Positions 15,001-63,000 of a stretch of 64,000 bases of DNA are shown here, in pieces; the first letter of the stretch is position 1; the number at the start of each line of letters is the position of its first letter. The translations under genes and the position numbers were made by a program. Source of the stretch: Candidatus Omnitrophota bacterium (lineage in GTDB: Bacteria; Omnitrophota; Gorgyraeia; Gorgyraeales; Gorgyraeaceae); NCBI GenBank assembly GCA_030691625.1, contig JAUYDX010000042.1, positions 463 through 64,462 on the forward strand. Reading direction: 5' to 3'. The notes under the pieces are model-generated. The model ran no database searches. It was not told where the DNA came from and saw only the letters and a program-made list of their open reading frames with translations.

Positions 15001-18000
15001 GCAGGCATTATGAATGATATAAACATTTTATTAAAGAGTATGGGAGAAGAGGCCTTGAGTTTTGACAGCCACTATACAGGCTATCTGCCTCAATCCAGAA
15101 AAGAAATAATGTCCTTATATGAAAATGGCTATAAGACAGGGGTTGAGGTCCGCGACATAAACATAGCAGAGTTCAATAAAGGCAATTACTATTACACCAG
15201 CCAGAAGATCAGGGATTTAAGGAATGCAAACGGAGTAAAGATAGGGTATTCCACAGAATACTTTAATAAATGGGGCGTAGAAACAGGCGTTCCTGAGTAT
15301 ACATCCAATACCGTGTTCCAGAGGGATGAAAATGGATATTTAACTGGCGAGGCAGTGCTTACGCATAAAGGCGGGGAATTTAAATACGAACATTCTACAT
15401 ACACCAGGGATGAATATGGCAGGATAAACGGCATGGATAAGCTGACAGTGGCAGGGCCTTTGTCAGAGAAGGATACGCCCGCGAGCGGCTATGACCACAG
15501 GAAGGTCAGCGTCTTGTTCGAGAAGATACATTATGTAAGAGACTCTATTACGCATATGAGGATAGGTGCTATCAGTGAAAAATGGCTAGACGGGAACTGG
15601 TATAAGCACAATAAGGATTCAAATGATTATATTGAACCCGACAGGGTGGCGATTAATGTTATTACAGACATCCAGGAAAAGTTTATTGATGGGAATTGGG
15701 TGGTAGTGAAGAACGCTGTTAATTTTGAATTTTCAAGCAGGGCACCTCCAGCTGCGATTCCGCATACAAAGGCCTCGCCTGACAATGAAGAGCCGCCAGA
15801 GCCGGAACTTCCTGAACAGCCTGAAATCACGCCAGTTTCCCTTGATGAGCTTTACAGTAAAGCGTTTGAAACGCTCCAGCCATTCCTTAATAACCCTGAA
15901 GAATTGAATGTCGGGTTTAAGATAGGCCAGTACACTGTCCTGAACTGGAGTTCTACAAAGATAACCATAGATAAGTTGACCGGCAGGGTGTATTCGGAAG
16001 AGACGGATGTCTATACTAATGACCTTGGCAGGCAGTGGTCCAGAAAAGACTATACCTATGAATTGTCGCAAAAGCAGAAAGATAAGGGCCTGACGCCTGC
16101 AGATTTTAAAGGCGAGGCTACAGGCTGGATCCAGTCTGGAAAGCGCGATGGCCTTTGCGTGAGCTTTAAGTTGGACGAAAACGGTTATACAGGGCTAAGG
16201 GTAGATCTCTATTATGACCCCATTACAGGATCGGTAACCGAACAGGATAGCTATGGCGGATACGGCAATTCAAAAGAAGGGACATGGGTTACCTATAAGA
16301 CAGAGTATTCTGACGGCCGTTCCAGTGACGGTACCGATGATGTAGAGGAATTTTTAAGGAATTCCGGATATTTAATAGCAGGTTCGGAGATAGAGACCAC
16401 GACCCAGAGTTACGAGGACACAGAGGACCAGGGAGGATATGCCAGAAACCAGACGCGCATCGAGTACCAGGTAAAGGTCAAGCAGGGCGTAAGTATCGGA
16501 GACGCGCTGGACCAGAAGAACCTGACCTATGATATTCTTGGCAGGATTACGTCAGGCGTATTCGCGACCTGGAACGACAAGAAAAGTAGATATGATATCA
16601 CCACTAAGACCAATATGCGGTATGACGCTTATGGCCGTCCCTTAAGCTATACTGAATATTCCACAATTGACGGCATCACATCCACAACAAATATCAAAGA
16701 TATCACTTATGACGCCTTTGGCCAGGAAATAAGCCGCTATATATCCGGAGAGTCAATAGACAGTAAGAATAAAAAAACCACCTTTAAAGGCACTATCACC
16801 AGCACCAATACCTACGACCCAGTAGGGCTTCTCAAGCAGAAGACCACAAGCGAGAACATCAAGTATGAACAGAAAAAATCCGGGTGGGGGCTGTTTGCTT
16901 TCTTTGGAGCAATATTCGCAGCAATATTTGCGGTCTTACTTGCGCCTTTCACAGGCGGTATGAGTTTATTGCTGCTTAAGGTCCTTTCTATAATGCTAAC
17001 AGTATCATTCTATGGTATGGCTACTATTGCTATAGCTAAAATTTGTGGCTGGGGCGGTTATGCAGTAGGCAGTATTTCAGAAAAGATTACTCAGTATAGC
17101 TATATTTTCAGTAAACTCGGCCGCACAGATACAGAAAAAGTCCTTAAGGATGTTCAGAAGGCCATATGGAATTTCTGGAGGGTTGCTGAGACTGTAAATA
17201 TTATAGCAGTGGGCATAATTGCTTCGATTATAAGTTTTGGAGTTTTAGGCCCTGCTATTGCAGGAGCTATGACTGCTCAAACTGCTGCTACAGCCGCGGT
17301 AGCAACTACAACTGCAGCAATATCTGGAAGCGTAGCTGCTTTAACTGCTGGTACAGTTGCGGGAGGCGTTGCCGCAGCCATGGCCGCGGGTTTCTCTGCT
17401 ATTGCAGCTGCCGCAGTAGCGCATTTAGCAGTTGTCACTTTTATCGCAGGCATGATTGCCACTGGCATAGCCGCAGTTGTATCAGGCGTTATTACAGCAT
17501 TCTTTGAGTTTATGCAAAATGATTTTAAGTCTTGGGCATTCGGATTAAGGGATTTCCTCATGTCTTTTGCAAGCGGCGTATTCAGCGCGGTATTTGAAGG
17601 AATAAGCCAGGCGCTTCAGTCGAGCTGGAGCGCAGGCGGCAAGGTAGCAAAGGTAATACATCAGATGAGAGATGCGTTCAGAACAGTAAGTCATTTAATG
17701 CCAGGCGCGCTTACAGGATTTACAATAGCGCTTCTTTATACCACTGTGAAATGGATAGCTACAGGTAAATTCGAATTTGATAATTTAGCGTATGGGATTA
17801 TGGCAGCAGGACTTTTTACAGATATACTGAGATGGGCGTTTAATATAGGGATGGGCCCAACAAAGTATGGCCCATTCAAAGAAGGCCTTTCTGTAAAAAG
17901 CGATTTTATCTATGACAAGATCTGGAAAAACCTGTCAGGCGCATTGAATAAAGTCTGGGAAGGATTCAAAAAGATCCTCAGCATTAGCCAGGAATATACT

Positions 18001-21000
18001 ATAGGCAATACCTATGACCAGCAGTTTGGCTTTGAGCTTGGCTTGAGCAGTTTTAAGCCTACAAAGACCGGATTTTTTGCAGGAATTAAAGAAAGGATGG
18101 CTTATTTAGCAAATTCTCCGTTCGTAGCGCACGATGCATTTGTTTTTGTCAGAAAGATAGTGCGCGGCTTTATAGAAATATTTGCAGCCAGTAAGCTCTC
18201 TGAGGCGCAGAGGGCAAAGCAGTCTAAAGAGTCGTCCGGCTCAAGGAGCACTGCGCCATGGATAGCTCTCTTAGGGTTTATTTCAATTGATGTGACCAAG
18301 CTTGATGTTGCAAGGAATATAGATAAGAATGGAAAGCCTATAGCGGATATTAAAAAAACCATAGAGATGGCGCCAGGCTTAAAAGTGCCTATCCTTAACA
18401 GCCTTACATACAGAAGCATGGATTTATTCGGAAGCCTGGGAAGACTGGTTATCCAGGTAGTAATGGCAAATGTGGCGATCCATAACCAGGAGAAGACAGC
18501 AGACGGGAGAGAAACCGGCAAGGAGAAGATCTGGGTTACCCTGATGAGGAATATAGTGGTAAATTCCTTTAATGTCATTGCCAGGATCGTGAATGTGGAA
18601 AGGACTGTCAGGGACAGGCTTGCCCAGGAAAACGGCTGGGTAGAAGGGGTTGATGGCTGTGAAATGGATATGGATAAAGAAGGCAACTGGGTGGCTACAA
18701 AGGACGGCCAGATGATCAAGTTTAACCCCACAGGCATGCTTATTATAGGAAGAGATATGTTTGGAATAGACAAGGATGGAAATCAGGTCCACATAGTAGA
18801 GAAGTTTATAAAAGCCGCTGAAATGAAAGGAAGGGAAGATAATTTTGAAGGATGTTACGGCGTGATAGTAAGAACTAAAAATGGGGATATTACTTATACC
18901 CCGATTGTAAAATTAGAAAATAAATTCCAATATCTTTCTGAGATTACACAAGAAGAGTATGAGAATAACCTGGCGTCATTCCATGTCACAAGCTATGCAG
19001 CCATGAATTTTGACGGGCTTTTAGGTCCTGGCACAAAGGATAAGATTGAAATTGAAGAGGCATTTGAGCTTATGCCTTCCGCTGATTTCAGCAATGAACC
19101 GGTCTATGTGTTTATAGTCATTGATAAAGATGGGAAAATAACAAAGCGCATGGAAGTATTTGACATGAGACTCAGAAGGCTTATGGAATATGAGTTTAAA
19201 TTAGACGCATTGCCGATGCTTACTTTCTATGGCAACTGGATGCCTTATGTAGGTAAAAATCTTACTACAGGTAAATTCGAGATTTTATATGAACGCGACA
19301 GCTTTACGGTTTTTGGCAATAATTCCGCGATTAAAGCCCATAGAAATGCTGACGGGACTATAACAAAGATTCTTTATGCGCTGGAAGGCGGAAAATTTAT
19401 TCAAAACGGTAATCCAGAAACCTTAAGGCCTGATTATGCGATAACGCTTGAGCTGCCAAAGGTGTTCATAGGAACACCTTTCTTTCCAAAAAGCGAAACC
19501 GGGGAAGAAAAGGAAACTAAGCAGCCTGCCGGAAAATTGTTGCAGCTTCCAGGGAAGTTTTTTGGCGAGGAAGGCAGCGTGAAAGCTGTTATAACAGATG
19601 AATCCGCAGCTATGATTAAATTCAGATACGAGATTGGCGGAAAGATATATGAAGGTGTCATAACAGCTATAGAGGAAGGGAAGGGAGGGATTGAGCGTTC
19701 AAGGATAGAAGAAATAACCAGTATTGACATGGCAAAGATAGAGATCATAACAGATACAGGCAAAGCCATATTTTATAAAATCGGAGACCAGACTTTCAGT
19801 GAAAACGAATATAAGATATTTAAGGATTCCGCAGTTAAAATGAACCTGGATTTCAAGCTGTGCCTGGAGCTTGTAAAGCTATTTAACATTGATCCGAAGG
19901 ATTTATTTAAAGATCAAGGGGTAAACGCAGATAAAAAGATTATCGGAGCGCTAAAGGCGTTATTAGAAATTTCAGCAGGCAGGGCGCCGCCTCTAGCAGT
20001 AGAGAAGATCTCAGCTTTTATAGATAAAATAAATAAAGGAGAAATAAAAGTAAAATACCTTACAGATTCCCCTGAAAATTCAGGCGTCCTCGCCAGATTT
20101 AACCCGGAAACAAATGAACTCTCCATAGCAGGGCTAAATACCTCAGATAAAGACATGGCAGTCCTGTTCGGCCTTGTCATATTCCACGAACTCACAGGCC
20201 ATCTGGAATTTACAAAAGCCACAGGCTTAAAGGCTGTAGATACGCTAAGCGTGTTTATTAACGAAATCGCGGCCTGGATGAGTACACTTGACATATTCGG
20301 CATAGATAACCTTAGCGGTATATTAAAGGAAAAGATAAAGGACGCGAAAGGCATTGCGCTAGTCATAAAGGCGCAGTTTGAGGCATTGATAGACGCTGTA
20401 AAATCCGGGACATTGCCAAAGAAAATATTTGAGGCATATGGTTTTGACAAGGCGCTTGGAAAGTCCTTTGAGAATATCAAATTTGAAGTCCTGGCAAAGC
20501 TAAAAGAGATATCCCCTCTTACTAAGGGCACTATATTCGAATCAGCTGTTAGTAAGCTTATAGGTATGCTGTCGCTGTCTCTGGCGCCTGTTGTAATACC
20601 CAGGCAGTCTATTGATTCAAGAGGCAGGGTAGTTGAAACGACCTACATGATATCCGGCGGCGCGCCAGGCACCATAGAATCCATCTCTGTCAGGTATTCC
20701 TACCGCGGGGATACCAATGTGCTTGATTACATGGAAGGCAGGCTCCCCATCGCAGACGGCATGTTCGCAGACAGGTCTATAAAGGTATATTGTGACAGCC
20801 ATGGCATGCTTGACTGGAAAACCGCGATATTCACAGATACAAATGAAAAAGCGGAATTGATATTAGCGACAAACACAGAAGGGAAAAAGTTTATATTTGA
20901 CACAATTTCAGGCAATTTGTTCGGGTTAGATATTATAGATACCTTAAAAGGAGAAAACCGTTTATCCGCGAGTTTCTCTATTAAAGACATTGACACCAAA

Positions 21001-24000
21001 AATGGTAAAGATGCATTTTATAAGGCAATAATAGGACATTATGCAAATATAGCCGAAGAGCTCAGAAAAGACAGTTATTATAAAGGACCGGTTATAACAG
21101 AGGAAAATTGGGGTAGCCAGTTCAGAGCTGTAAATATCGCAGCTGCAATGAAATCCATAGCCGAACTTAGAGCCAAGGCTTACCATGAAACTGCCGACGC
21201 CTTACTCGTAAAAGCAGAGACCTTAGTACAAAAAGGCCAGTGGAGAGAAGCGCTCGGCGATATATTCACAGCCCAGGCAAATGTCGTTGCTGAAAACTGG
21301 GCAAAGACAACAACTAAAGATGGAAAGACCATATGGCTAGCAAATAACGGCAATATTGAAACTATCGGCAAGCTTTATATAACAACCCAGATAGCCGAGC
21401 TTAGAGCCAAGGCTTACCATGAAACTGCCGACGCCTTACTCGTAAAAGCAGAGGCCTTAGTAGCAAAAGGCCAGTGGAGAGAAGCGCTCGGAGATATATT
21501 CACAGCCCAGACAAATGTCGTTGCTGAAAACTGGGCAAAGAAAGAGGCGAAGTGGGATTCTTACAAAGGCTCTATACTCGACAAAGTAGAGCAGGCAGGC
21601 TTGGACTACGGAAAGTATCTGTTAGGCATAGCAAATAAAGAGATAACCGAAGCAAAAGGAAAAGGTATCACTATAGAAAGCTTTGATCCTTCAAAGATTA
21701 CACTCACAAAAGACAACTGGAGAGAAATGCTCAGCACTATCTCTACAGGCCTGACAAATATATCTGTAGAAATGTGGGCAAAGACTACAAATACCAAAGA
21801 TGGGAAGATGACAATATGGACAACTAATAACGGGAATACTGAAACTATCGGCGCTCTTTACGCAACCCATCTCATAGCTGATATCAGGAGCAAGCCTAAC
21901 CATGAGAGCGCAAATACCCTTCTTGCAAAGGCAGAAGGCCTGATAGCTAAAGGCCAGTGGAGAGAAGCGCTCGGCGATATATATGAGGCGCAAGCAAAGA
22001 TATTTAATGTCCGAGTTGTAAACGGCAGGGAGTTTGCATTTGTGAAAGAGAATGGAGTGGAGAATCTGGGAAATGGCAATATGAAAGTTACTCTTATGGA
22101 CGGAACAGAGTATTTTGTTGATAAGGGCGGAAATATCTACAGGAGAGTAACGCGTTCCAGAGAAGTTGATATAGAAAAGACAATAGCGGAACAGGGTGAA
22201 TTCAAAGATATAAAAGAAGGTAATTCAGTTAAGACAGTGTTTATCTCAGGAGCGCGCGTAACTATAACAAAAAGCGATCCAAGAAACCATGAGCTGGCAT
22301 TTCAGGTAAACCTTCTCAAGGTAGAAACAATCCACGATGGCTTACTAGTATCTATGACAGAAAATGGCATAGATGAAAAAGGCAAGAGTATAAATAAGAG
22401 AGTTAAATATGAAAACGAGGCTATGTATTTTGACGGCAAGTCTTATGTCCTCAGTATAGGCAAATCGAGCGAGGGTTATATAGATTCAATAGGTCAATAT
22501 GAAGCTTCCTCTTCGGGCGAATATAAGCTTATAAATTTTGCCCAGCTGCCAGAAGGAACACACGTTAAACAGGTTAATTACAACTTATTCAAAGAAACAA
22601 AGAGTATGCCAGACCACTTTGACCCTGCTACGCAAAAATGCATAGAGAAAGATGTGATTTTTGTAAGACTTACCTTAACTAATTCTTCCGGCACAGAAAT
22701 AAGCGGGGTTTCTTATGACAGTTACGCATACGCGGATAACGCCGAGTATCATCTAAGCACTTCTATACAGCGTATACGCATGCCCAGCGGAGATCCTACT
22801 ATACCTAATTATGTTACCACAGAAGAAGTTTTAAGCCGCTCGTCCTCATTATACGATGGCTCTGGCGCGCTTATTTATACAGGATCTATAGACAGAGATG
22901 GGAAAATAGAACAGGTTACTGATTTTACCAGCATAGATGGCAGATTGGTGCAGAAAGAGACAGTAAACATAGTGGATAGCAAGGTTCATAAAGGAACATT
23001 CACTTGGGAAAAAGATTGGGACGGTTATAAATCCACAATGGAAATGATAACCGAGGAAAATTTAGGGGATACAAAAAAGACTATTACGGTAAAGGAAATA
23101 ACTTATTATGATAGCACGTTTTCAAATATTCCAGGGACTGGTTCTACTGTATTTACAGATGGCAAAAAAGAATGGGCTGTAGAAGAATCAACTACTAAAT
23201 CCTGGGGCTGGTTTACACCATTTCTATCAGTGGGAACTAAAATAAGATCTGTATACTACAATTGGGTAGCTGGTCAGACAGAGATTGACGATGGCTTTGG
23301 TAATAAGATTCAGGCTTCAGAAACATACCTAGACTATTTAATGGATAATAAATTACAAAGCCTTGCTAATGCAAAACTGTCAGAGGGTTTTCTTAGATAT
23401 ACAAGAGAGGAGATTAATGAAACAAAACCCTGGGTCAGATTAGGGCTTGAGCTAGGTATGTCAGCTACGGTAGGTTTTTTAGATGGCATCACTCTGCCCA
23501 TATCCTTCATCTTAGATCCTATCGGCACAGGAAAAGGTTTTGTGGATATGGTTAAGACATTGAATATTCAGCTGCGCGATGATTTTATCTGGACAGTAGG
23601 GTCTTTTATAGGTTTTGGAAAAGGCATGAAGGCTTTACACATATTACCTGAGTTATTCAAAACAGGAGACGTAGCAAAGTCAGGTGCGCTTGAACTGTTG
23701 AAAAAATCAGGATCTTCAGATGTTGCAATATCAAAGCTTAATTTAGGATTTAGCGCTAAGTTATGGATGAAATATGGCAAATACATAGAATATGCGCCTG
23801 AAGCTGCAGGAAGGTTTATTATGAGCCAGGTTTCTACAGTGGTAGGGATGGGTTTTATGTTTGGCATTTCCTATCTACTGGGTACGGTTTTTGGCTCAAC
23901 AAGCGAATATCTTGGATTAGGGAGAGATTTTGGAGAAGGTTTGGGAGGATTAATAGGGTTCTTTGCGCCAGGCGCTATAATGAAAATAGCAGTGGAAACC

Positions 24001-27000
24001 ATTAAAGCCAGGGCAGAACAAAAACAGATAGTATCAGTGGAGTCTGTACAGACAAGTATTATCGCTAAAACTTATTTAGGCATTGAGTTAAGCCCAGGGG
24101 AAGAGATATTTTTAGAAAGGTATTCAAACGATAGCCAGGTTAGATCTAAGATAGACGCAACTACATGGGGAGATATTTTTAGAAAGGTAGCTACAGGAAA
24201 GGATAGGTTAAGCCTTCAGGAATTAGGAAGAGTAGAAAAGCTAGCGTCTGATTTTGTAGATTTAGTCTATTTAAATCCAGGAGAGATTGCGAAACTGTCA
24301 GAGGGAGATTTTAATAAATGGGCTTCGTACAGAGAGATAGATATTGCTAATCCAGCTAAAGCAGCTGATCTTGTAGGGGCATATCTAACCAGAGGAGATA
24401 TTAAATCTGCCATAGAAATCGCAGAAACTACAGCAGACAGCGCTTTGAAAAATAGTTTATATGATACTATAAGTAGTAATATCATGGAATCCATTAGAAA
24501 TAGTGACATTAATGGAGCCAGGGATCTTAAGATAAAGGTCCTGACCAGTATAACCTTTGAAGCTGAGAAAGGATGGGAACAGGATCCATTGGTAACAAGA
24601 TTACAAGGATTTGACATAGACCTTGGAGAAACCTTACGAGAGGGCATAAAGACACAGACTCTTTCTGTGACAACAGATGACTCTAGAATTTGTACGGTCT
24701 CTAATTCTAAATATGGCGCAATAACAGTTAACAAACCAGGGCAGCGTTCAACCGTAAATCCAGATATTATTGAAGCGGCTCAGCCTCCAGATGCAAAAAC
24801 GAAATATAGGTATAATTATGAAACGACTGTCACAACTATAGTAAGGAATATAGCTACGGGTGAAGTAAAAGATATAAAAGAGACAGTGCTGATTGGGTCT
24901 AATAGACGCCTTACTGATGTAGCAATAGAGCAAAAAGCGAGAAACGAAGCGCCTCAGGCATTAAAATTAAGAGAAGATAATGCGAGATTGCTTGAAGCCA
25001 AAAGGTCATGGATTCATTATGAAACGCTCGGGATAACAAGAGAGATATCAGCAATCGGAAGCGCCACAGAGCGCGAGGCTATAGCTACTATAGGGATAGA
25101 TAAACTCAAGGTATTGATAGCAGAAGAAAAGAATAAGCCTGATTCGGCTCAGAAAATCTTTAATCTTATTGCTCTGCACATGGAAGAGAATGCTATAGCT
25201 TATGAGTCAAAATATGGCAAGGCATGGAAGTATCAACCAGCGCAGTATATTGACGCGATCGAGAATTTATATGCGTTAGAAAAAGGTTTTAGATCAGAAG
25301 AAGGAAAAGTCAGGGAGGCTTTTGGGTTATCCTGCGCAGGAGGCAAGACAGCTGCCCAGGCAGCAGCTATAGCCACTTTTAGCGACTTATATCCTGATGC
25401 GAAGGTAATATTTGTCACCACGTCCAAGAATATTAAATCCATGAGGGAGAATATAAGCATCGGCGACAGAGTTAATTACATAGCTGACGAGAAGATATCT
25501 CAGGTAGAAAAAGGCATAAACATAGTTAATTACAGGACCCTGCAGGAATTAGGCATTAGCCAGAAACTGAAGGGCGCGCAGATAGTAGCTGATGAAATAC
25601 AGGCAGGACTGGCTGAGTCTGACCTGGTGCGCAGTATGGGCAAGGACCTTTATAAAAAACTTCCAGTATGGGAGAGGTCCAGGATTGACAGGGAGTTGAG
25701 GCTGTATCAGGAGGTATATAATGTTGTAAGCAGTTATTTAGATGCAGTGAAATCTAAAAATCCTTATTTTGATGGAATACTACGCGATGGGCCTGAGCGA
25801 TGGACTATGGAAAAGAATAATATATTCGAGAGGTTTAAAAATACGCCTGAATGGAAAAAGATGGTTGAGAGAATGGGAGAAACAGACTTTAATGATATGG
25901 TAAACAGCGCTGCAACAGCTTATATGATAGATACAGCTAATGGAAGCGGAGGTTATTACCTGACGCTTAGAGATGGCACTTATGCTTCCACAACTGAGGT
26001 AAACGGCTTGTATAAGATAAGGGCAGGGGATGAAACAAGCGGCTATAAAGATATGGGCTACAGGTTTGTGGAGAAAAAAGATATTACAGGATACTGCGTC
26101 GCTAATAGAGAAGCGGACCCGTTGCCTAATACCAAATTTGGCGGGAACATGGATGGCAGGCCGAGCAAATTAGGCGTGATGGTTGGGATAAAGCATAATC
26201 TTGATATGGATGTTTTAAGGGATTCTTACCTGGATATTATTACAGACCGTACAAATATTATTGGAGCAATAAAACAGGCGCATAGCACGATTGTAAATAC
26301 AGGCACGCTTCAAGGGTGCGAGCCAAGCCTCAGGGGACTCGGGTTTAAAATAACATATTTTGACCAGGAAAGGACTTTGGATTATTTAAAAGAGAGTGGA
26401 AATGTTGATATAAAGGTAGTGTCTGAAAAAGGCAACAGAAGTTTAATAGATATTATAAAAAGTAAATATGCAGAGCAGGAGAGGGCCTTATTGTTAGGAG
26501 TCACTGATAATAATGTTTCTAACCTTGTAAGGCTTATTGATGAATTAAAGCCTGTAAAAGAAAATGGCAAATATTATGTAACTTTTGACGGTAAAAAAAT
26601 AGAATTGATTTTTATATTAGACGACGCTAATTATAAACGACTGGAAGACGCTATACGGACTGAAGCAGAAAGCTCAGATGGCGTGAAAAACAGGATTATT
26701 ATAGGGACTTTTGCAGAAGGCGTAAATACGTGGGCTAGTGTTAAATTAAAAGGCTCTCAGGAACCGGCTTTCAGCGGCTTTGTGATAAAGTTGAATATGT
26801 CCAGCATTGATAATGTGGCTCAGACATTCCAGCGCGTTGCGCTTACAAAAGATATGATAGAGGGAGACCAGAGGGTAGCTGGTAAGGCGCTATGGTATCT
26901 CAATACGGAGAATTTAAAACTCTCATCAGAGGAGAGGGCGATATTGCTAGAAGCGTTTAACTCTCACGATCAGAAGAAAATAGAATCCGCAGTACAATAT

Positions 27001-54000: not shown

Positions 54001-57000
54001 TCTTTGACAAAAGAGGAAAAAGAAAATATTCTAAGATTCTGCAGGGATAAGCATAATAAGATACCGGAAATAGAGTCTGCGGCCATTGAAGCTGAAAAGG
54101 CCAGCGATGATGTATGGGAAAAGTTGCGTTATAACAGGAGGCGTGACCAGAAAACACTTGAGGATATCATAGATGAGCTGAACCAGCTTACCATAGGAGG
54201 CGTTAAGCAGGGATATAAGGATGTTTCATCGCTGGATGATGCTGTTAAAAAGGCCGCTAAAGGGCTTGGCTGGGATATGGTATTTAAAGGATGGTCAGAA
54301 TTAAAATATGAGGATAGGAAGTTATTGCTTAACGCGCTATCAAGGTATAAAGACCTTAATTATGGAGAGATATCAGAGCTTGCGCGTCAAAGCTGGAAAT
54401 TCGGATTTAATGAAGATAGATTAAATCAACTGTTAGTAACAGGAAATACATTACATAGATTGATAGAAGAGGGGCAAGCTGATGAAAGAGACAGGATTCG
54501 AGACAGATTCTTCAGATTCAAGAGATGGTCTGAATTATCTGATAAAGAAAAAACAGATGTAAAGAATGAAATAGAGAGATTGTCAGGTGAGCCGCAAATC
54601 ACAGAAAAAGACAAAAATGCATACAGAAAGATATTAGAATTAATTAGAGAGTCAGGCAATAGGAATAATGAGATAGAGCCTGCAAACCTTAAAGATATAC
54701 TTAAAACGCCTGAAATTAAACCTGATGGGAGCGAAGGCGAAAAAGAAGACCTTAATAAATACAGCTGGGCAAATGAGTTAAGAGAACATGGTAGATATGA
54801 TGCGGTTAAGGGGATAACTCTGGATATGATTTTTAACGGCCATTATGGGGCGCATATGCTATTTGGCGGGTCAGCTACGCGGCTTGGGCTCGGCGCCATG
54901 TATTTCATAAGTATAGCAGAAACCTGCAGGAAACTGGTTGAGATAAAAGAAAAGATAGGTCAGGGTAAAACACCCACTGATAATGAAAAGGTAATCTGGT
55001 CCAGTTTTATAAAATCCATACCGCATCCTGCAAAGCAGGAACGCGTAATAGAAAAGATACGTAAGTTCTTAAAAGAAAAAGATGAGGTTTTATATAAAGA
55101 TTCTGGTTTTAGTGAAGAAGATATAGCCGCTTACAGGCATCGCTTAGAAGAGTTGATAAGCGATGCGAGAAGGAAGGACGCCAATCCAAAGGCAGTAATG
55201 GCTCATATAAAGGATTTCTTAAACTCAACAGAGGTTAAAGAAAAAGGCTTGCCAGGCACGGGGATTGATCAGATAGCTATTTACAGGCAGAGTTTGGGAG
55301 AATTGATAAATAAGGCGGAGAGAAAAGACGCTAAGCCTGAAGCAGTAATAGCTGATGTACGCGGATTATTAAAAAAGATCCAGGAAAGTATTTCAGGTGA
55401 AGACCCTGGGTTAGGGCCTAATCAGATTATCGCTTACAGGATGCGCATAGAGGAATTGGCAAAGGCAGCTGGAAAGGCCGCGGATGAGATAAAAGCGATT
55501 ATAAATAAACAGGTATTAGTCCTGCATGTGAACGCTTCGCTTTTGCGCAAGATAACAGAAGACCTTAGAAAGAATGATTTCTACGGGTTTAACCCGGATA
55601 ATGTGTATGTGATACCTTCGCCCATGATTCTTGGCCACAGGCTTGGCAAAAGGCGCGGGGAATTTATCCTTGACCTGGACAGCCCAAGGCTTGTTGTGGG
55701 CCATGGAGAGGCATTTGAGCAGTTATTCCGCAAGGACCAGGTTTATCAGGCAGGCGAAGACGGGAAACCCGTAAAGGTAATGGGAAGATCAGCAGAAGAG
55801 ATACTTGAGGAAAAAGGCGTAGATGTCTTTTGCGCCCAGAGGATAAATAATCTTAAGATGTGGACAGACGAGGTCTTGACCCTTGAGGCTGTTATGCATT
55901 TTGCGGATGACCCAAACCTTGATCTACAGGTAATGCTGGTGGCTAATCCTACGCGCCAGAAAGGCGGTTCGTGGTCATATATAAGGGGAAATAATACCTA
56001 TGGCCTGGTGGAGTCGCTCAGCTTAAAGGCAAACGGCATCAAAGAAATACAGAACACCCCTCCAGAATCTTACAATGAGTTTACTAATTGGTATAGATTG
56101 AAACAGATAAAGAGCAGGTTAAATGTAAAGAGCGGCATAGAGCTGGTGCAGAGATATATCAAATATAAACCAGATGACAGCGAATATTATAAACTCAGGG
56201 ATGGATATGGCCCGCAGGCGCATACTGACGCTGTAACAAGCGATTTAACTCTAAATGAGAGGTTGCGTTGTAAAGCGGCGCAGAGGACACCGCAGGATGC
56301 TATAAATGATTTCAAGGAGCTGAAAAATTTAGAAGCGGCTATGAAGGCTGTGCTGGGATTCCTTAAGAAGAAAAAGGAACACGAAGGCAATCGTCAGCCG
56401 CCATCAGGGTCTGACACAACGCATAATGAGGAAACATTGGGAGGGACACAGGAGTCTCTTGGGAGCAATATGAATCTCGTACCTGTCATTATGTCTGTTC
56501 TCATGTCGCTTGCTGTATTCCTTGATAAAAAAGTTTTATTCCCGCTATACTCTAAAGAGCCCATAAGAGAGGAATTAAGGCCCAGCTGGCAGAATCTGAG
56601 CACTGATATCATTCCTTATGTTATCCTGTTCGCGGGTTTAGTCAGTTTTGCGTCATTTTCAACCACAATAGCGGCAATTATAGGCCTGGCTGTAATAGAA
56701 TCCTTAGGCTTAAGCAAGTCTGTCCCAGACAGGCTATTCCATACACTGGAGTTTATGTCAGGCGTTGCGTTTTTCTCTTTATTGACAGTTATTACCTTGT
56801 TTGTGACAGCCTTAATAATACGTCCTTTTGAAAAACCTTCTACAGAGGTTTTAAAGCCTGTAAACCAGCATTTCTGGCAAAGAAAGCCTATATGGGGCTT
56901 AATAGGCAGGGTTACATTCCAGGAATTATTCTACACAGGCGGCCTGATAAGCATTCCTTCGATTTTAATGGAGTCATCAGGATTTAAATCTTATTATGTG

Positions 57001-60000
57001 TATATGTCGAGGGTAATTCTTGTAATGTTTGGGGCGTGGATATTCGGAAGGTCTCATCAGAAGCTTATTTACTGGTCTAGTGACAAACCAGGCCTGGAAG
57101 AAAAGGAAGATACGACCTCAAGGCATAAGTTATTTTTCTCCACGCTGGGAATAGTTTTCAGAGGCCTGTATCTTATACCCGGCATCAATGCTTTAGTAGG
57201 GCTTTTTGGGGCTGTTTCCATGCATCTATTCTATGGAGTAAAGATAGCCCCATTCTTTAACCTGCCACAGGCCATTGACTCATCGCATGAACAATCTATC
57301 AATGAACGGCTTAGCTATTTATGCGAGGGTAGCGAAGCTATGAAAACAGCTATCAAAGGCGCTATTGTCAATGATTACTGGTCTTATGGCGATCCGCCAT
57401 TTAAGGTTACGGTTAGAGTTGATAAGGACGGCAAGATGATAGAGGACACAAAAAAACTGCATATAAACAGAAGGTTATTCGAAGGCCTGTTAAGCCATCT
57501 GCATGATAAAACAACAGGCGATATGTGGCGTTATATTACTATAGCATTATTGAAGTATCTTGAGACATCCTTCTTGAATTTAGACACTTATGACTTAAAG
57601 GCTTTGGCCAATCTAAAGCAGATCTACATTGGAAGGCCGTATAGCAAAGAATACAGGCGAGATCGCTTGAATCCGTTGTATCAGGATACAGAAAAGTTAA
57701 ATTATACCAGCGCGCTTGCGGCGCTGTATGTATATTATGAATCTTTCAATAGCGCGGCGTATTATGACTATCTAAATAGCAAGGGGGTTATCAGCGCTGA
57801 CATAGAAGACCTTGCTAAGGCTGTAAAAACAGATGGCTTCCTCAGCCTTACTCTTGGACGGATGGCTGATTTTATGTATAAGTGCGAAAGAGAAAATATA
57901 ATAACTGCTACGTTAGATGCTTTTCTACATGGGCGCAGAGGTTATATTGCAGAAGCAATTCAAGATATTGTAAGCGGGTATAGAGAAGAGAAATTTATGA
58001 AATATATGTATATATTAGCCGAAAGCGCGCCTGAGGAAAGATGGCATGACCTTATAAGTTTTTTCTGGGAGATAAAGACAAACCCAAACGAGCAGGTAAA
58101 AGAAGGAGAACTGGAATTTGCCAGGCCTTTCCAGTTATATGAAACTTTTATGAAAGATGAAGAGAGAAAGCCCAGTCATAATCCTGGAACAGAAAGTATC
58201 GCCAGCGGCGCATCCCTTAAGGCCTCGCTCAGAGATTTATTCGCAGGCAATAAGGAAATGCAGGCAATGATAGCAGATAGCGTTATTCATGGCGATTGGG
58301 GATTTGGAAAGCCTGCCGCTGAAGTTACAGTAAAGATAGGAGAGACGCCTGTCCTGAATATCAACGGTCAGCTGTTAGATGCTTTATTAAAGAAGATAGA
58401 AAAAGACAATAATCCTGAACATAAGAAGATCTGCCTGGCTACTATTATGGGCGTATTGAAACAGGAGAAGGCTCATATTGATAATATTAATGCCAATGCT
58501 TATGACTTAAAGGCCCTGGCAGGCATAAAGGAGGGCTTTAAAGAAGCGATGGGAATAGACCCTGATGCAGAAAGAGAGGAGACAAGAAAAATATCAGAGG
58601 CCAGGGCTGGTTTGCAGGTTAAATATGAAGAGATAGGTTATAGGATATTAGACAAAGAATATCGGGACCGGCAGATTCATTCTACTGCCATATATAATCT
58701 GGGAGAGGCATATTATAGAGAGGGAGATGAGTTATTGGGCCGTACATTGATGCAGATATCAGAGTTTAAGAAAGGCTGCGAGACAGGGAATGGCAGCGTG
58801 TCATATCCTGCGGCGCTTGATTTGGAAAAAGGCGAAAAGAAAAAAGAAGACAACAAGCACTGGGATATACCAAGGTCTATTGAAATAGCATCGCAAGACC
58901 CTGGTTTTGTAGATCATTTAAAGAATGACTCAGATAGAATGACAGTAGAAGAGGTTAAGCAGAGATTTAATATCCCTGAGCAGGAAAAAGTTAAAATGCC
59001 GGCCGAGCTCATCTTCGGCTCGGGAAGTGTTTCCGAGTCTGCCGCGCTAAGCAGTAACCATTGGTTTACAGATTTTTATCCTATTATATGGTTAAAAGAA
59101 AGATGGTCTGCAATCTGGAACCGCAGATCAAGTTTTCTGCAGGTATTGCCGCATATTGAATCGCCTGCAGTTTCTACGTCAACCAATGATTTACAGGCCG
59201 GACAGAAAATCCAGGAATTGCCGATAAGAGAGAGGATTAGAAAAGAAATCATGGCGCGTTCTGATATTGTCAGTTTTAATCCTACTAATGTCAGGGAACT
59301 ACAAGATAAGTTTAAAAACAAGAGCTCTGGGCCTGAGAAAATAGAAAAAATTGTCAGACGTTTATTAAAAACAAATGAAATAATAGAAGTATATGGCGGA
59401 AGATTAGTTGCGATTAAGACTAACGGGGAAGATAAATTAGGCGAGTTAATAAGGATAGGGATGCTTGTGAAATACCGCAGTCCCGAAGGGATAAAATATA
59501 TAACTGGAAAAGATCTGGAAATATTAAAAGCAAACAATAAAATTATAGCGGTGTCAACGGATGAAGAAGGATCCCTGGAATATATACTGGAGAGCGATTT
59601 GAATAAGTTTGAAGACATAATAGCGCTTCATTCTGCTGAGACTACAGGCAAGCCAGCTGAGCGAACAGTCAGTCCAAAGATTTCTTATTACCAGGCTGAT
59701 TTATTTTTCAAAATGTTCGAAGGCAAGTTTATAAAAATCGATAATCCTGCTACAGGCAAACCCAAATACATAGCATCTCAGGGAGAACACAAAAAGCCCT
59801 ACTTAAAAGAAATTAGGGATTCAAATAGGCGTAAGCTCGAGAAGATAGTTGGGAAAAAGCTGATGGTTAAAGAAAGCGACGCGGATTTAGAAAAAGAAAT
59901 AAAGGATTATATCGGTATTATAAGGAAAACATATACGATCCTGGACACTGTTTTTGGAGACAGGCCGGACGCAAAAACAGGAGAATACTTAAGCGACGCA

Positions 60001-63000
60001 GCATTAGACAGGACATTTGACACAAGCGACTTAGCCATAGCTAATAATTTGTTTGATTTTAATGCGCGCGAAAGCAGAGAAAAATATATTCAGTTACTCT
60101 GCGCAGCATTAATTTTAGATATACCCGACGAATCTCTCGCAGCGCTTTCCAGTAAAGAAACTGAGCCCATAAGAAGGCTCGCGAATAAGGTCAGATTCAT
60201 GGTAGACGGCATGCCTTATAAAAAGAATACCAAGGATGATTTTCATGCAGGCAAGTTTGAAACTATGATAGAAGATATGATTGAAACGCCAGAGGAACTT
60301 TTGCTTTATTTAGGAGCCAAGATCGATAAATTAAAATCTCATGCAAAAGCTTCTGCGCAGGTAAAATCCGATTATTATGATGAAATGAGGTTTATAGTAG
60401 CAGCTGTTGCTCAGCGTTATGGTTTAGTGGAATTGGCAAATGAAATAAAAGACAGGGTTTTTAAGGGTCTGGACAAAGATAATTATGAAGCGACTGTGGA
60501 AGCCAGGGATAAGAAAACCGGGATGGAGGAAAAGACTGCGCAGAGGTACATAGAAAGATTGGTCGGTGAATTGAAACAAGCCCTGCTTGGAGCAGGATTA
60601 AAAGCAGACATAGAGATCTACGGCCGTTTAAAGACGCCTGGCAGTATAGAACAGAAAAAAGGATTGAGGGGCTATGACTTTGATGATATGAGAGATCTGA
60701 TAGGGGTTAGGATCATTACAGAAAATGATCAAGATTGTTACGCGGTAATAGCTTTAATCAGGCAAATCTCCCATACAGAAACAGGAGAAAGGTCTTTTCT
60801 TGGCAAAGAAATATTAAAGGGATATGACGACTATATCGCAAAGCCCACAAAAGACGGATATAAAATGTTGCAGTTATGCGTGAACCATCCGATTGGTTTA
60901 AATGTTTCAAAATGGGGAATTATTGAAAACTCTTCGCAGTCGCAAACCATGCTTCCTATAGAGATACAGATCAGAAGCGCAGAAATGGAGAAGAAGGCGA
61001 AATACAGCAGTGATATCAGTGATCCTGTGAGAAATGCTAAACTAGCAGGCTATAAGTACTTTAAGAGCACAGGCTATGTGCCGGATATAGGCGTTGACTT
61101 AACGAGAAACATAAAAAATGTTAAGGAAAGTTTAAAAGAAGGCGATAAAGAACTGAGAGGTAAGGCCATATACTTACGTTTGCTGGAGAATAATGAAATA
61201 ATAAGGCTTTTGGAGACTCATGAAGGCCCTACGCCTGTAGACGCAATCTGCCACCGCAGGTATACAATGGATGATGTAGAAAGAGTGAATGGGATCACTA
61301 TAGTTACACGGGACGAAGATACAGAAGTTCCTAAAGAAATCAGTATCAGTTTGCTGGGAAAGGGCACGCAAAAAGTAAAAAATCTTCAGTACTTGGGGAA
61401 AAAATTACGCAGTGGAGATTCTATTGTAATAGAATATGTAAGAAAAGGAAGCGCTCGTATGCCCCTATTAGATTATCAGCCAGAACTTATACAAGCTTCT
61501 AATAATCTCAGGACGCAGGTATTATGCAGAAACTTAAAAGGTGGTTTAGACAAAGCTAAAGCGGAAGGAATAAAACTATTGCGCGAAGCAGGTATTATTA
61601 AAAATAAAAGAGATAAGAAGGTTTCAAGAGGCATAGAATCCGAATTGACTCCTATCGCGAGAAAGATTTGGGGCTTTCCAAAAGAAACATGGGAAGATGA
61701 ATTCTATGCAGCCGTAGGCACTCTTGTTAAAACAGGAAGCAATGTCAAAAGCTATGTTATTAATGTTAAAGATCTAGAAAACCTTGGTATAGCTCCTGTA
61801 AGCCTTTCAGGCTCTTCAGCAGCTTTAGCAGTTTCTTTAATCACCAGCGCCATACCTTTATCAGTAGCCTACAGCGTTTCCCAAGATATCCCGGAAATAG
61901 CTACTATAGCCATAGCCTTAGTCTCCCTGCCAGGGCTTATAACCAGCGCATTTTATCTAATACAGACAGGTTTCATAGCGTTCGCGAGGATATTGAATTA
62001 TCTTGTTAAAAGAGGCGTAATTCACGGGCCTCCAGGTTTTGGCCTTATACCAGAGTTTGAAGCTGCTATAAACGATCCTTCCTCAAAAGACCCTGCTTAT
62101 GTATCTCAAGACACGAAGCTTTATGTAAATAAGGCCTTAATGAGACTGATGCCTCAATGGATGCAGGGGCAAATCCTGATACACGAACAAATCCACCAGA
62201 ATGATATAGCCGGACATAGAAACCCAAGCGAAATAAGGGCATATCTAATGCCTGTCATGGAAAGTATCTCATGGCCGAAAGAAAAGTTCGCAAACATCCA
62301 GGGGAAAGTAAGATTTGAATTTTTAGCCGTTGTTATGATGTTTGGGATAGCCCTGGGGACTGTATATTATTTAGGCCATAAAGGACCTGATGCCTCAAAG
62401 GCAGAGCAGCATTATATTCTTGACAGCCAGGCAAAGTTATACAGCGAGCTTAGCAGAATAAACGAAGCAGAGGAAATAGCCGGCCATTATTATATGGGCC
62501 AGGATGGGAAATATCATATAACTGTTGAGGAAAGAGGCAGCGCTCGCTCTGTGTCCCCGGCTTCTCCTGAATTAAACGCGCATAATTTCCATGCCCATCC
62601 ATCGGAAAGCGCGACAAGCCCTCTGCATAAAACTCCGAGCCTGGCAGATCTATATGTTGTTATCGGGGACGCAAGGCAGGAGGACATAACAGTAACAGAG
62701 CCAGGCAGGTTTATAAAACTGGTAAATAACTCCACTGAGAGTAATCAGCCGTTTAAACGCCTGTACGTAGAGATCTACGACCGCGTAAAACAGGAAGTCG
62801 CGAAAATGGACCTGGATGAATATAATTCCGCGCAGATGCGGCAAGTATTAGCAACATATTTATTGAAGAAGGCCTTGTTCGAAAGGATTGAGGCTTTATT
62901 TAAGACTATTGCGCCAGATAATCCTGGAGCATCTGTATTTGATTTAGGCGAAGAAGACCGCAGGCTGGAATTACATGTTAATTCGTTTCCTTTTATAGCA

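Follow-up and report, generated by a model that had tools for sequence, protein, structure and literature searches.

The window, a stretch of 64,000 nucleotides, lies wholly inside a giant gene of more than 64 kb. Across nt 1-63999 (21,333 codons) frame +1 contains no stop codon, against 662-1,943 in each of the other five; the ORF listing holds no competing long ORF, the frame is open at both ends of the window, and the encoded protein is at least 21,333 amino acids long. The hydrophobic helix clusters that the first-pass annotation had assigned to one polypeptide do all lie on this uninterrupted reading frame, as nine distinct bundles of predicted transmembrane (TM) helices with large soluble stretches between them. 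Their positions agree with those given there, except that cluster 2 is narrower (23.83-23.99 kb) and that cluster 9, whose hairpin is where it had been placed, includes a third helix, which lies a little beyond nt 62,000. The features of the window, all on the + strand, are as follows.

1..63999, +, stop-free reading frame, open at both window ends
3298..14550 (aa ~1100-4850), +, degenerate tandem repeat array (self-BLAST, sequence)
16879..17748 (aa 5627-5916), +, predicted TM cluster 1, 5 strong helices and up to 3 weaker ones
23833..23994 (aa 7945-7998), +, predicted TM cluster 2, a two-helix hairpin, the weakest cluster
33097..33861 (aa 11033-11287), +, predicted TM cluster 3, 4 strong helices and 1-2 putative ones, directly upstream of the protease domain
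34024..34494 (aa ~11342-11498), +, S1C (DegP/HtrA-like) serine protease domain, flanked by clusters 3 and 4
34672..36303 (aa 11558-12101), +, predicted TM cluster 4, the largest bundle, 9 strong helices and up to 4 putative ones
47728..48516 (aa 15910-16172), +, predicted TM cluster 5, 7-8 tightly packed helices
50167..50508 (aa 16723-16836), +, predicted TM cluster 6, 4 helices with very short loops
52486..53139 (aa 17496-17713), +, predicted TM cluster 7, 5-6 helices
56455..57240 (aa 18819-19080), +, predicted TM cluster 8, 4 strong helices and 2 putative ones
57295..59022 (aa 19099-19674), +, internally duplicated soluble domain (self-BLAST), common to the relatives L001, P0019 and P0151
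60094..61005 (aa ~20032-20335), +, RelA/SpoT-homologue module, a RelA_SpoT synthetase domain with a weak HD_4-like region before it
61.78-62.38 kb (aa 20594-20793), +, predicted TM cluster 9, consisting of the next three features
61780..62004 (aa 20594-20668), +, conserved two-helix hairpin, 41-45% identity to P0151/P0005 and P0019
62005..62295, +, HExxH soluble domain of ~95 aa, aligned with relatives including L001
62314..62379 (aa 20772-20793), +, third hydrophobic helix, just beyond the end of the cluster as first annotated
63592..63933 (aa ~21198-21311), +, uridine-kinase / phosphoribulokinase-like P-loop domain (profile and PDB matches)

Soluble domains and the repeat array

The serine protease domain matches Pfam Trypsin_2 (E 1.1e-11, 46.1 bits vs. 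a cut-off of 27.6), and in a PDB alignment with DegP-like proteins its His (LTNHHV), Asp (GDLALL) and Ser (PGASGAP) fall on the catalytic triad of DegP, so that the triad is intact; the NCBIfam HtrA/DegP/MarP matches are weak, and no PDZ domain was detected with the protease. Membrane serine proteases of the MarP (Rv3671c) type resemble this unit in having TM helices directly upstream of an S1 protease domain (four at the N-terminus of MarP, before a protease of chymotrypsin fold, and four to six here), and the MarP family model gives a weak match over the protease part (19.7 bits vs. a cut-off of 250). However, the CvpA/Colicin_V TM domain was not detected here, and the unit is part of a giant chain in which a further bundle of about 10 TM helices comes after it.

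The RelA/SpoT module is matched by Pfam RelA_SpoT (E 1e-16), TIGR00691 (E 1e-23) and RelA/Rel entries of the PDB (E 1e-12), and a motif scan found the synthetase motifs RxKxxxSxxxK (aa 20209), DxxGxR (aa 20232) and ExQxR[ST] (aa 20321) intact. The P-loop domain is matched by NF004018 (E 1.6e-8), Pfam PRK (24.3 bits vs. a cut-off of 22) and uridine kinase in the PDB (E 8e-4). The S1 protease and RelA/SpoT-like domains of the first-pass annotation are thus confirmed, as is, by self-BLAST, its duplicated domain; for the coiled coil that it also listed, a crude compositional scan of the protein gave nothing.

The hairpin of cluster 9 has invariant Gly, Ser and Pro residues and ranks with the best-conserved stretches that were found; AF2 models it as helices of 25 and ~39 residues. 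In the soluble domain behind it HExxH is invariant (HEQIH at aa 20728), with an E..AY motif downstream; the motif occurs 3 times in the protein, where by our own calculation from the measured H and E frequencies ~0.16 occurrences would be expected. The HExxH domain has no match in Pfam, the PDB or Foldseek, and the TM clusters match no Pfam family. Together, the hairpin and the HExxH domain form a putative membrane-tethered zinc peptidase-like module of no known family. P0019 and L001 also have a hydrophobic helix at the equivalent place after the domain; P0151 has none there.

The array at aa ~1100-4850, which contains no TM segment, is built on the recurring motif xTxTxxYELGxxxxxxTQKxWK; AF2, given the internal repeats as the alignment, predicts a continuous antiparallel beta-hairpin meander (pLDDT 69, 26 strands), which in Foldseek finds generic beta-sheet matches only.

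The hydrophobic helices

Scanned for Kyte-Doolittle hydropathy over 19 residues (KD19) at a threshold of 1.6, the protein gives 41-43 segments, none of them in aa 1-5,629, and the only ones outside the nine clusters are two weak, charge-containing segments (aa 6142 and aa 6848). Measured against composition-preserving shuffles, the excess at this loose cut-off is only ~2-fold (43 observed vs. 18), and the argument therefore rests on the higher cut-offs: 19 segments vs. 3.9 +/- 1.9 at KD19 >= 2.0, and 12 vs. 1.3 at KD19 >= 2.2. Uncharged hydrophobic runs of 19 aa or more number 32 vs. 6.4 in the shuffles and reach from 19 to 105 aa, the longest being an Ala/Gly/Thr-rich stretch in cluster 1; peaks of Eisenberg mean hydrophobicity >= 0.68 over 21 residues number 45 vs. 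3.9, and segments with a summed Hessa apparent free energy <= 1.5 kcal/mol 25 vs. 1.8. At the stringent cut-offs, then, the excess over shuffles is 5- to 14-fold.

The segments are also strongly clustered, with 32 of the 42 gaps between them shorter than 150 aa, where placement at random would give 11 (and gave at most 19 in 2,000 trials). Their hydrophobic moments (0.1-1.0 on the KD scale) are low relative to their mean hydropathy (1.5-2.65), and they are thus not amphipathic helices, the alternative which the first-pass annotation had raised against its own reading. By classical criteria at least two segments in every cluster qualify. As judged from hydropathy, each cluster would appear to be a true hairpin or bundle of helices that span the membrane. 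The predicted total is ~41-53 helices, with per-cluster counts uncertain by 1-3, or ~1 helix per 400-500 aa.

Relatives and published giant proteins

An exhaustive HMMER search with aa 19901-21100 against 1.84 billion representatives returned only 5 matches below 1e-30, and those with names are MAG proteins of 'Candidatus Omnitrophota bacterium'. The only relatives detectable are fragments of Omnitrophota giant ORFs, which share isolated modules at 25-54% identity and in a different order. They include L001, the single GTDB locus found, from Candidatus Omnitrophica bacterium CG1_02_40_15, with a stop-free ORF over its entire 10.2 kb, and P0151 (7,762 aa), which has five separate TM clusters of its own. 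The position of the duplicated domain relative to the HExxH module differs in L001, P0019 and P0151. Word-index homology searches gave no matches, and among the TM clusters the evidence of conservation is confined to cluster 9. The one giant bacterial gene to which the whole 64-kb window belongs comes most likely from the Omnitrophota, an assignment of phylum that draws on a few modules with 25-54% identity.

The layout in several TM blocks had been called topologically extraordinary, and here the first-pass annotation, sound on the helix clusters and their single ORF, is not supported, since many TM helices along one chain are the published norm for giant ORFs of the Omnitrophota. The giant protein of 'Candidatus Velamenicoccus archaeovorus' LiM has 39,678 aa and 42 TM helices (Kizina et al. 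2022, as summarised in PMC10066038); of 916 long proteins in a 2026 preprint, 94% have a signal peptide or TM helices, and a protein of 122,534 aa has the largest number of TM helices in one chain, 331 (bioRxiv 10.64898/2026.06.07.730766). The layout is striking, but it is a documented hallmark of Omnitrophota giants and hence no new kind of thing.

The window and the V. archaeovorus giant are alike in their Omnitrophota affiliation (probable for the window), in being a single giant ORF whose TM helices, several tens of them, are distributed over its length, and in having few annotated domains, a likeness of architecture rather than of demonstrated sequence similarity. The window differs in its helix density, which is higher than the 1 per 945 aa of that protein and lies between the published extremes of 1 per 370 and 1 per 945, and in its S1C protease, RelA/SpoT, HExxH and uridine-kinase-like modules. 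The 'archaeovorin'-type and other Omnitrophota giants (bioRxiv 10.1101/2023.11.21.568195; 10.64898/2026.06.07.730766) share with it numerous TM regions in all full-length members, mostly unannotatable sequence, antiparallel beta-repeat regions, mutually inconsistent topology predictions and embedded peptidase domains that prompted a self-cleavage hypothesis. In the main text of these two preprints no mention was found of RelA/SpoT, ppGpp or alarmones, nor in that of the 2026 preprint of the Trypsin_2 accession. None of the domains by which the published subtypes are defined (SecA_DEAD, C39, S8, dockerin and TSP3) was detected in the window's 21,333 aa; the SecA-like domain of most published giants was not found within the window, and the gene continues past both ends.

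Topology and fate of the chain

We consider it probable that the window encodes part of a mega-protein of Omnitrophota type that genuine TM bundles hold in the cytoplasmic membrane of the producer itself. These would insert one after another during synthesis, presumably through SRP, SecYEG and YidC like polytopic proteins in general, and each long inter-cluster stretch would end up on one side of the membrane or the other. The protein would be built as a mosaic, in which every self-contained module pairs a membrane anchor with the domain next to it, such as the 4-6 TM helices with the S1C protease or the two-helix hairpin with the HExxH domain, and the modules would have been shuffled between lineages.

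On topology the picture meets with difficulties. K+R counts alternate according to the positive-inside rule in clusters 1, 4 and 8, though not significantly after correction for loop length, and the best local models of neighbouring clusters give a consistent single topology only with suboptimal helix counts. At the one junction where helix parity could be checked, the RelA/SpoT and uridine-kinase-like domains, both nucleotide-dependent, are separated by the three strong helices of cluster 9; the number being odd, by simple counting both cannot be cytoplasmic, helix counts being uncertain by 1-3.

That conflict would be largely disarmed if the chain were cut during or after insertion; no mature protein would then have to hold nine TM blocks in one topology. 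An obligate polyprotein, in which the S1C protease and possibly the HExxH module cut the precursor into separate membrane-anchored subunits, is a minority possibility in our estimation. An intact-triad protease lies directly between two TM clusters and a conserved, putatively membrane-tethered HExxH module is present, which makes proteolytic processing plausible; the modules, moreover, are autonomous and shuffled between relatives. The arrangement recalls that in coronavirus pp1ab (nsp4-nsp5-nsp6) and the flavivirus polyproteins, where a chymotrypsin-like protease is flanked by TM blocks, and in viral replicase polyproteins co-translational insertion followed by cleavage resolves the topological complexity of a long chain with several TM clusters. 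The likeness is one of analogy, implying no homology: here the genes are bacterial and chromosomal, at least 3-10 times longer and without known cleavage sites. The 200 aa on either side of the clusters yielded no recurring short motif that might act as a site of cleavage, and no relative was found with the modules as separate genes; the protease could equally process other substrates, and HExxH is a motif only, without fold or family match. Self-cleavage of giant chains was raised as a question by West-Roberts et al. (bioRxiv 10.1101/2023.11.21.568195).

It is highly improbable that some of the blocks are translocation or pore-forming segments that enter the membrane of a prey or host cell, delivering the RelA/SpoT-like and uridine-kinase-like modules. 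Secreted RelA/SpoT-like toxins do exist, such as the type VI secretion effector Tas1, and the three helices between two ATP-dependent domains would by simple counting leave one of these outside the producer's cytoplasm. Omnitrophota have been proposed as predators or epibionts and their giant ORFs suggested to be pore-formers, in the account given in PMC10066038. However, clusters of 7-11 close helices with short loops typify resident polytopic proteins rather than toxin translocation hairpins, the K+R counts lean, if not significantly, to ordinary positive-inside insertion, and the RelA/SpoT module most resembles long RelA/Rel enzymes of the housekeeping kind, also over part of the HD region. 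Profile and PDB searches found no similarity to known pore-forming or translocation domains; the pore-forming segments suggested in the first-pass annotation gain no positive support. Equally improbable is a soluble or secreted protein whose segments are buried cores of helical domains or Ala/Gly-rich low complexity: shuffles already yield some segments at the loose cut-off, part of cluster 1 is of low complexity, cluster 2 is weak and TM programs disagree on the published giants, but the stringent excess, the charge-free runs, the clustering and the paired classical segments of every cluster stand against it, and the first 5,629 residues, free of any such segment, serve as an internal control within the same chain.

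The open frame and its hydrophobic clusters

Six-frame translation leaves frame +1 without a stop codon from nt 1 to nt 63,999 (21,333 codons) and open at both ends, vs. 662-1,943 stops in the remaining five frames. Since competing ORFs in the window also reach at most 223 aa, the window is an internal piece of one gene of more than 64 kb; with at least 63,999 nt and 21,333 codons, it exceeds the size set for giant ORFs (>20 kb, >10,000 aa, uninterrupted). Internal sites combining a Shine-Dalgarno sequence with a start codon are not enriched in frame (8, vs. 18 and 6 out of frame), and these counts give no sign of nested genes.

A first-pass annotation of this DNA had described at least eight separate clusters of transmembrane (TM) helices on one polypeptide. 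Scanning the Kyte-Doolittle mean over a 19-residue window (KD19) recovers nine clusters where that annotation had placed them, between aa 5627 and aa 20793; the limits match overall, except that cluster 2 is narrower than had been stated and the third helix of cluster 9 lies just beyond nt 62,000. At a KD19 threshold of 1.6 the chain has 41-43 segments, only two of which, both weak and charge-containing, fall outside the nine clusters, and none of which falls in aa 1-5,629, so that the N-terminal 5,629 aa provide an internal control within the same chain. Composition-preserving shuffles already yield ~18 segments at this loose threshold, and the argument is therefore borne by more stringent measures: KD19 of at least 2.0 (19 segments observed vs. 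3.9 shuffled) or at least 2.2 (12 vs. 1.3), charge-free hydrophobic runs of at least 19 aa (32 vs. 6.4), a summed Hessa free energy of 1.5 kcal/mol or less (25 vs. 1.8) and the Eisenberg criterion (45 peaks vs. 3.9). The segments are also grouped, 32 of the 42 gaps between them being shorter than 150 aa as compared with ~11 under random placement, and their hydrophobic moments are low, so that they are not amphipathic. Together with the excess over shuffles, these low moments answer the doubt, raised by the annotation itself, that most clusters might be amphipathic or otherwise unsupported by hydropathy.

By hydropathy criteria, the nine clusters hold ~41-53 hydrophobic helices in total, or one per 400-500 aa, the number in any one cluster being uncertain by one to three. 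A Pfam scan of each TM cluster separately, at E values up to 5, returned noise only and no family for any of the nine, leaving their identification as known transporter or channel domains unsupported. A crude composition scan of the chain gave no signal for the coiled coil that had been annotated, which may yet be present.

The clusters can also be seen in the nucleotide composition. The coding strand is purine-rich over the whole window, and its A-over-T skew falls to ~0.01-0.08 in precisely those 2-kb bins where TM clusters lie, vs. ~0.15-0.29 in most others. Codons for Phe, Leu, Ile and Val have T at their second position, which would be expected to have this effect; the drop is a nucleotide-level footprint of the hydrophobic codons.

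Soluble domains and the HExxH module

Pfam and NCBIfam recognise very little of the 21,333 aa, and only Trypsin_2, RelA_SpoT and PRK pass the Pfam cut-offs. The features, all in frame +1 of the forward strand, are as follows.

Features of the giant chain (aa numbers are frame +1 codons)
aa 7027-7173 and 7188-7334 (window 21079-22002): internal duplication, in frame, 48% identity
aa ~11342-11498: S1C protease (Trypsin_2, DegP-like) between clusters 3 and 4, 46.1 bits vs. a cut-off of 27.6
aa 14022-14261 and 14596-14826 (window 42064-44481): internal duplication, in frame, 31% identity
aa 19099-19299 and 19405-19597 (window 57295-59022): internal duplication, in frame, 25% identity
aa ~20032-20335: RelA/SpoT homologue (RSH) module, PF04607 at 60-62 bits vs. 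a cut-off of 27
aa 20594-20765 (window 61780-62295; 3-197 of the GTDB locus L001): two-TM hairpin and ~95-aa domain with an invariant HExxH
aa ~21198-21311: uridine-kinase/PRK-like P-loop domain, from profile matches

The protease, in which alignment places His, Asp and Ser at the positions of the DegP triad, has the trypsin fold and catalytic triad of the HtrA/DegP (S1C) proteases but differs in that no C-terminal PDZ domain was found by profile search; full-length HtrA/DegP models give 17-27 bits against cut-offs of 416-470. The MarP family is marked by an N-terminal CvpA-like 4-TM domain and by its own model cut-off, and the chain shows neither: model NF033740 reaches 19.7 bits (cut-off 250) over the protease part only, and cluster 3 has no Colicin_V/CvpA match. 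In the RSH module the synthetase motifs RxKxxxSxxxK, DxxGxR and ExQxR[ST] are all intact, and an HD-like region gives a weak HD_4 match (E 0.04). Long RSH proteins combine an HD hydrolase with C-terminal TGS and ACT domains, a full architecture that is not found here: TIGR00691 scores 83.5 bits (cut-off 499) and covers only model positions 81-308 of 687, and there are no TGS or ACT matches. Just past cluster 9 lies a weak, sub-threshold match to DUF4329 (window ~62458-62733, aa ~20820-20911; E 0.0016, 18.8 bits vs. a cut-off of 28.6).

The hairpin of cluster 9 (aa 20594-20793), aligned between the window and the relatives P0151 (7,762 aa) and P0019, keeps invariant Gly, Ser and Pro residues, and the whole hairpin plus HExxH module is carried by P0151/P0005 and P0019; L001, which starts only after the hairpin, has the HExxH domain alone in common. 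That this TM hairpin ranks with the best-conserved stretches argues that the cluster-9 helices are functional parts rather than accidental hydrophobic patches. In the ~95-aa domain the invariant motif is HEQIH (aa 20728), followed downstream by an E..AY motif. An AlphaFold2 model from the three-sequence alignment (pLDDT 67) predicts helices of 25 and ~39 residues and, after these two, a small alpha/beta domain bearing the HExxH helix. The module has no match in Pfam, PDB or Foldseek; to judge by its motif, it may be a metallopeptidase. The protein holds three HExxH motifs where ~0.16 would be expected from its measured H and E frequencies, the others being HEWVH at aa 708 (window 2122-2136) and HELGH at aa 9869 (window 29605-29619), in unannotated soluble regions.

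Relatives and the published Omnitrophota giants

An exact 40-mer taken from the window does not occur in the GTDB representative genomes or the JGI metagenome contigs, neither the DNA nor the protein of the window being present in any of the collections searched, and word-index protein searches (8,000 candidates each) with clusters 3-4 plus the protease, clusters 5-6, and cluster 8 plus the duplicated domain gave no significant match. When aa 19901-21100 were run exhaustively by HMMER against 1.84 billion representatives, only five matches fell below 1e-30; the named ones are proteins, mostly partial, of 'Candidatus Omnitrophota bacterium' metagenome-assembled genomes (MAGs), and further matches are metagenome proteins of 6,022 and 7,762 aa, the latter with five separate TM clusters. 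Homology is limited to single modules (RSH 28-31%, duplicated domain 25-30% and cluster-9 module 41-45% identity), and for two modules the closest relatives are Omnitrophota MAG proteins or an Omnitrophota contig (25-54% identity). The duplication at window 57295-59022 is common to the Omnitrophota relatives, where it lies to the other side of the HExxH module. Pattern searching based on the cluster-9 alignment turned up a single GTDB locus, L001 of Candidatus Omnitrophica bacterium CG1_02_40_15, and nothing in metagenome or viral contigs; all 10.2 kb of L001 are one stop-free frame, in which the window's modules recur but are ordered differently. The window itself has no marker genes, and these sequence comparisons make it most likely a member of the class of Omnitrophota giant ORFs, very divergent within it.

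In Omnitrophia, the majority of giant ORFs combine several TM helices with large domains between them, and that of V. archaeovorus is given as 39,678 aa with 42 predicted TM helices (PMC10066038); among 916 long Omnitrophota proteins, 94% have TM helices or a signal peptide, and a single chain can have as many as 331 helices (bioRxiv 10.64898/2026.06.07.730766). Published giants have ~1 TM helix per 370-945 aa, a range that includes the window's one per 400-500 aa, and they share with it few annotatable domains and poor sequence conservation. Thus the first-pass annotation was right in what it observed, but the layout that it called topologically extraordinary is a documented hallmark of Omnitrophota giants, rediscovered here and expected for the class. 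Its two alternatives, processing and insertion into a target membrane, restate published open questions. West-Roberts et al. 2023 report that TMHMM and DeepTMHMM disagree on giants and that embedded peptidases suggest self-cleavage (bioRxiv 10.1101/2023.11.21.568195).

Most published giants have a divergent SecA_DEAD or SecA preprotein-binding domain; none was detected in the window, but the gene continues beyond both ends and may encode one there. A neighbourhood of type II secretion or type IV pilus genes, another trait of the giants, would lie outside the window, which is ORF throughout. The dockerin, TSP3 and discoidin repeats of the Dockerin-type giants (a West-Roberts subtype) have no Pfam matches here. 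RelA/SpoT, ppGpp and alarmone go unmentioned in the main text of either giant-gene preprint, as does the Trypsin_2 accession in that of the 2026 preprint.

Topology and fate of the chain

How proteins of tens of thousands of residues that cross the membrane dozens of times are made, inserted and used has been a question since the Omnitrophota giant genes were described, one alternative being that the giant chain is made as a precursor and then cleaved. The window does not by itself answer it, but is a very divergent further example that offers some points of attack: its S1C protease, whose triad is intact, sits between two TM bundles; several Omnitrophota giants have the conserved two-TM plus HExxH module in common; and there is a junction of RelA/SpoT, three helices and uridine-kinase-like domain, the topology of which is experimentally accessible because both flanking domains need cytoplasmic nucleotides.

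Certain and putative helices were nominated in each cluster, the only use made of a TopPred-style re-implementation that finds ~23 'certain' segments, too many, in shuffles, and models were then enumerated under the positive-inside rule. In clusters 1, 4 and 8 the K+R counts show a clean alternation (in cluster 4, they run 7, 2, 4, 1, 5, 1, 9, 2, 4, 2, 5); per residue of loop the bias is not significant (binomial p 0.05-0.8), since the loops on the inside also have more residues. The local models that score best for neighbouring clusters chain into one topology only with suboptimal helix counts, and for these two reasons no topology is claimed. The parity test has little power, because almost all clusters include a helix of uncertain status and some globally consistent solution can then always be built.

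Between the RSH module and the uridine-kinase-like domain (window 60094-63933, aa 20032-21311) there are exactly three strong helices, and no other segment of this stretch rises above a KD19 of 1.11. Both domains need nucleotides, and a simple helix count does not allow the two of them to be cytoplasmic. The third cluster-9 helix, which P0151 does not conserve, may fail to cross the membrane; one of the enzymes may not be in the cytoplasm of the producer; or the chain may undergo cleavage.

The best-supported reading of the whole is a predicted mega-protein of mosaic build, anchored in the inner membrane of its producer by TM bundles that would insert one after another during translation, each anchoring the adjoining domain. 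It is plausible, by analogy, that the giant chain is instead a polyprotein cut into pieces: the S1C protease is wedged between two TM bundles, as chymotrypsin-like proteases are wedged between TM blocks in viral polyproteins. A search of the 200-aa flanks of all clusters found no recurrent short motif, as a candidate cleavage site, beyond trivial overlaps. A fuller version seems to us improbable: a bacterial 'polyprotein' that would cut itself, by the TM-flanked S1C protease and the membrane-tethered HExxH module, into membrane-anchored enzymes, with at least one nucleotide-dependent module (RelA/SpoT-like or uridine-kinase-like) on the outer face, an odd number of helices from the other, acting as a prey effector and not in the producer's cytoplasm. 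Insertion of the hydrophobic blocks into a target membrane lacks positive evidence.

Upstream of the clusters, the chain contains a huge degenerate tandem array (window 3298-14550, aa ~1100-4850) with the motif xTxTxxYELGxxxxxxTQKxWK. Its AlphaFold2 model, which in the PDB has generic beta-sheet matches only (LptD, VDAC, TcdB2-TccC3; TM-score ~0.3), was built with the internal repeats as the alignment and predicts a continuous antiparallel beta-hairpin meander of 26 strands in 396 aa.
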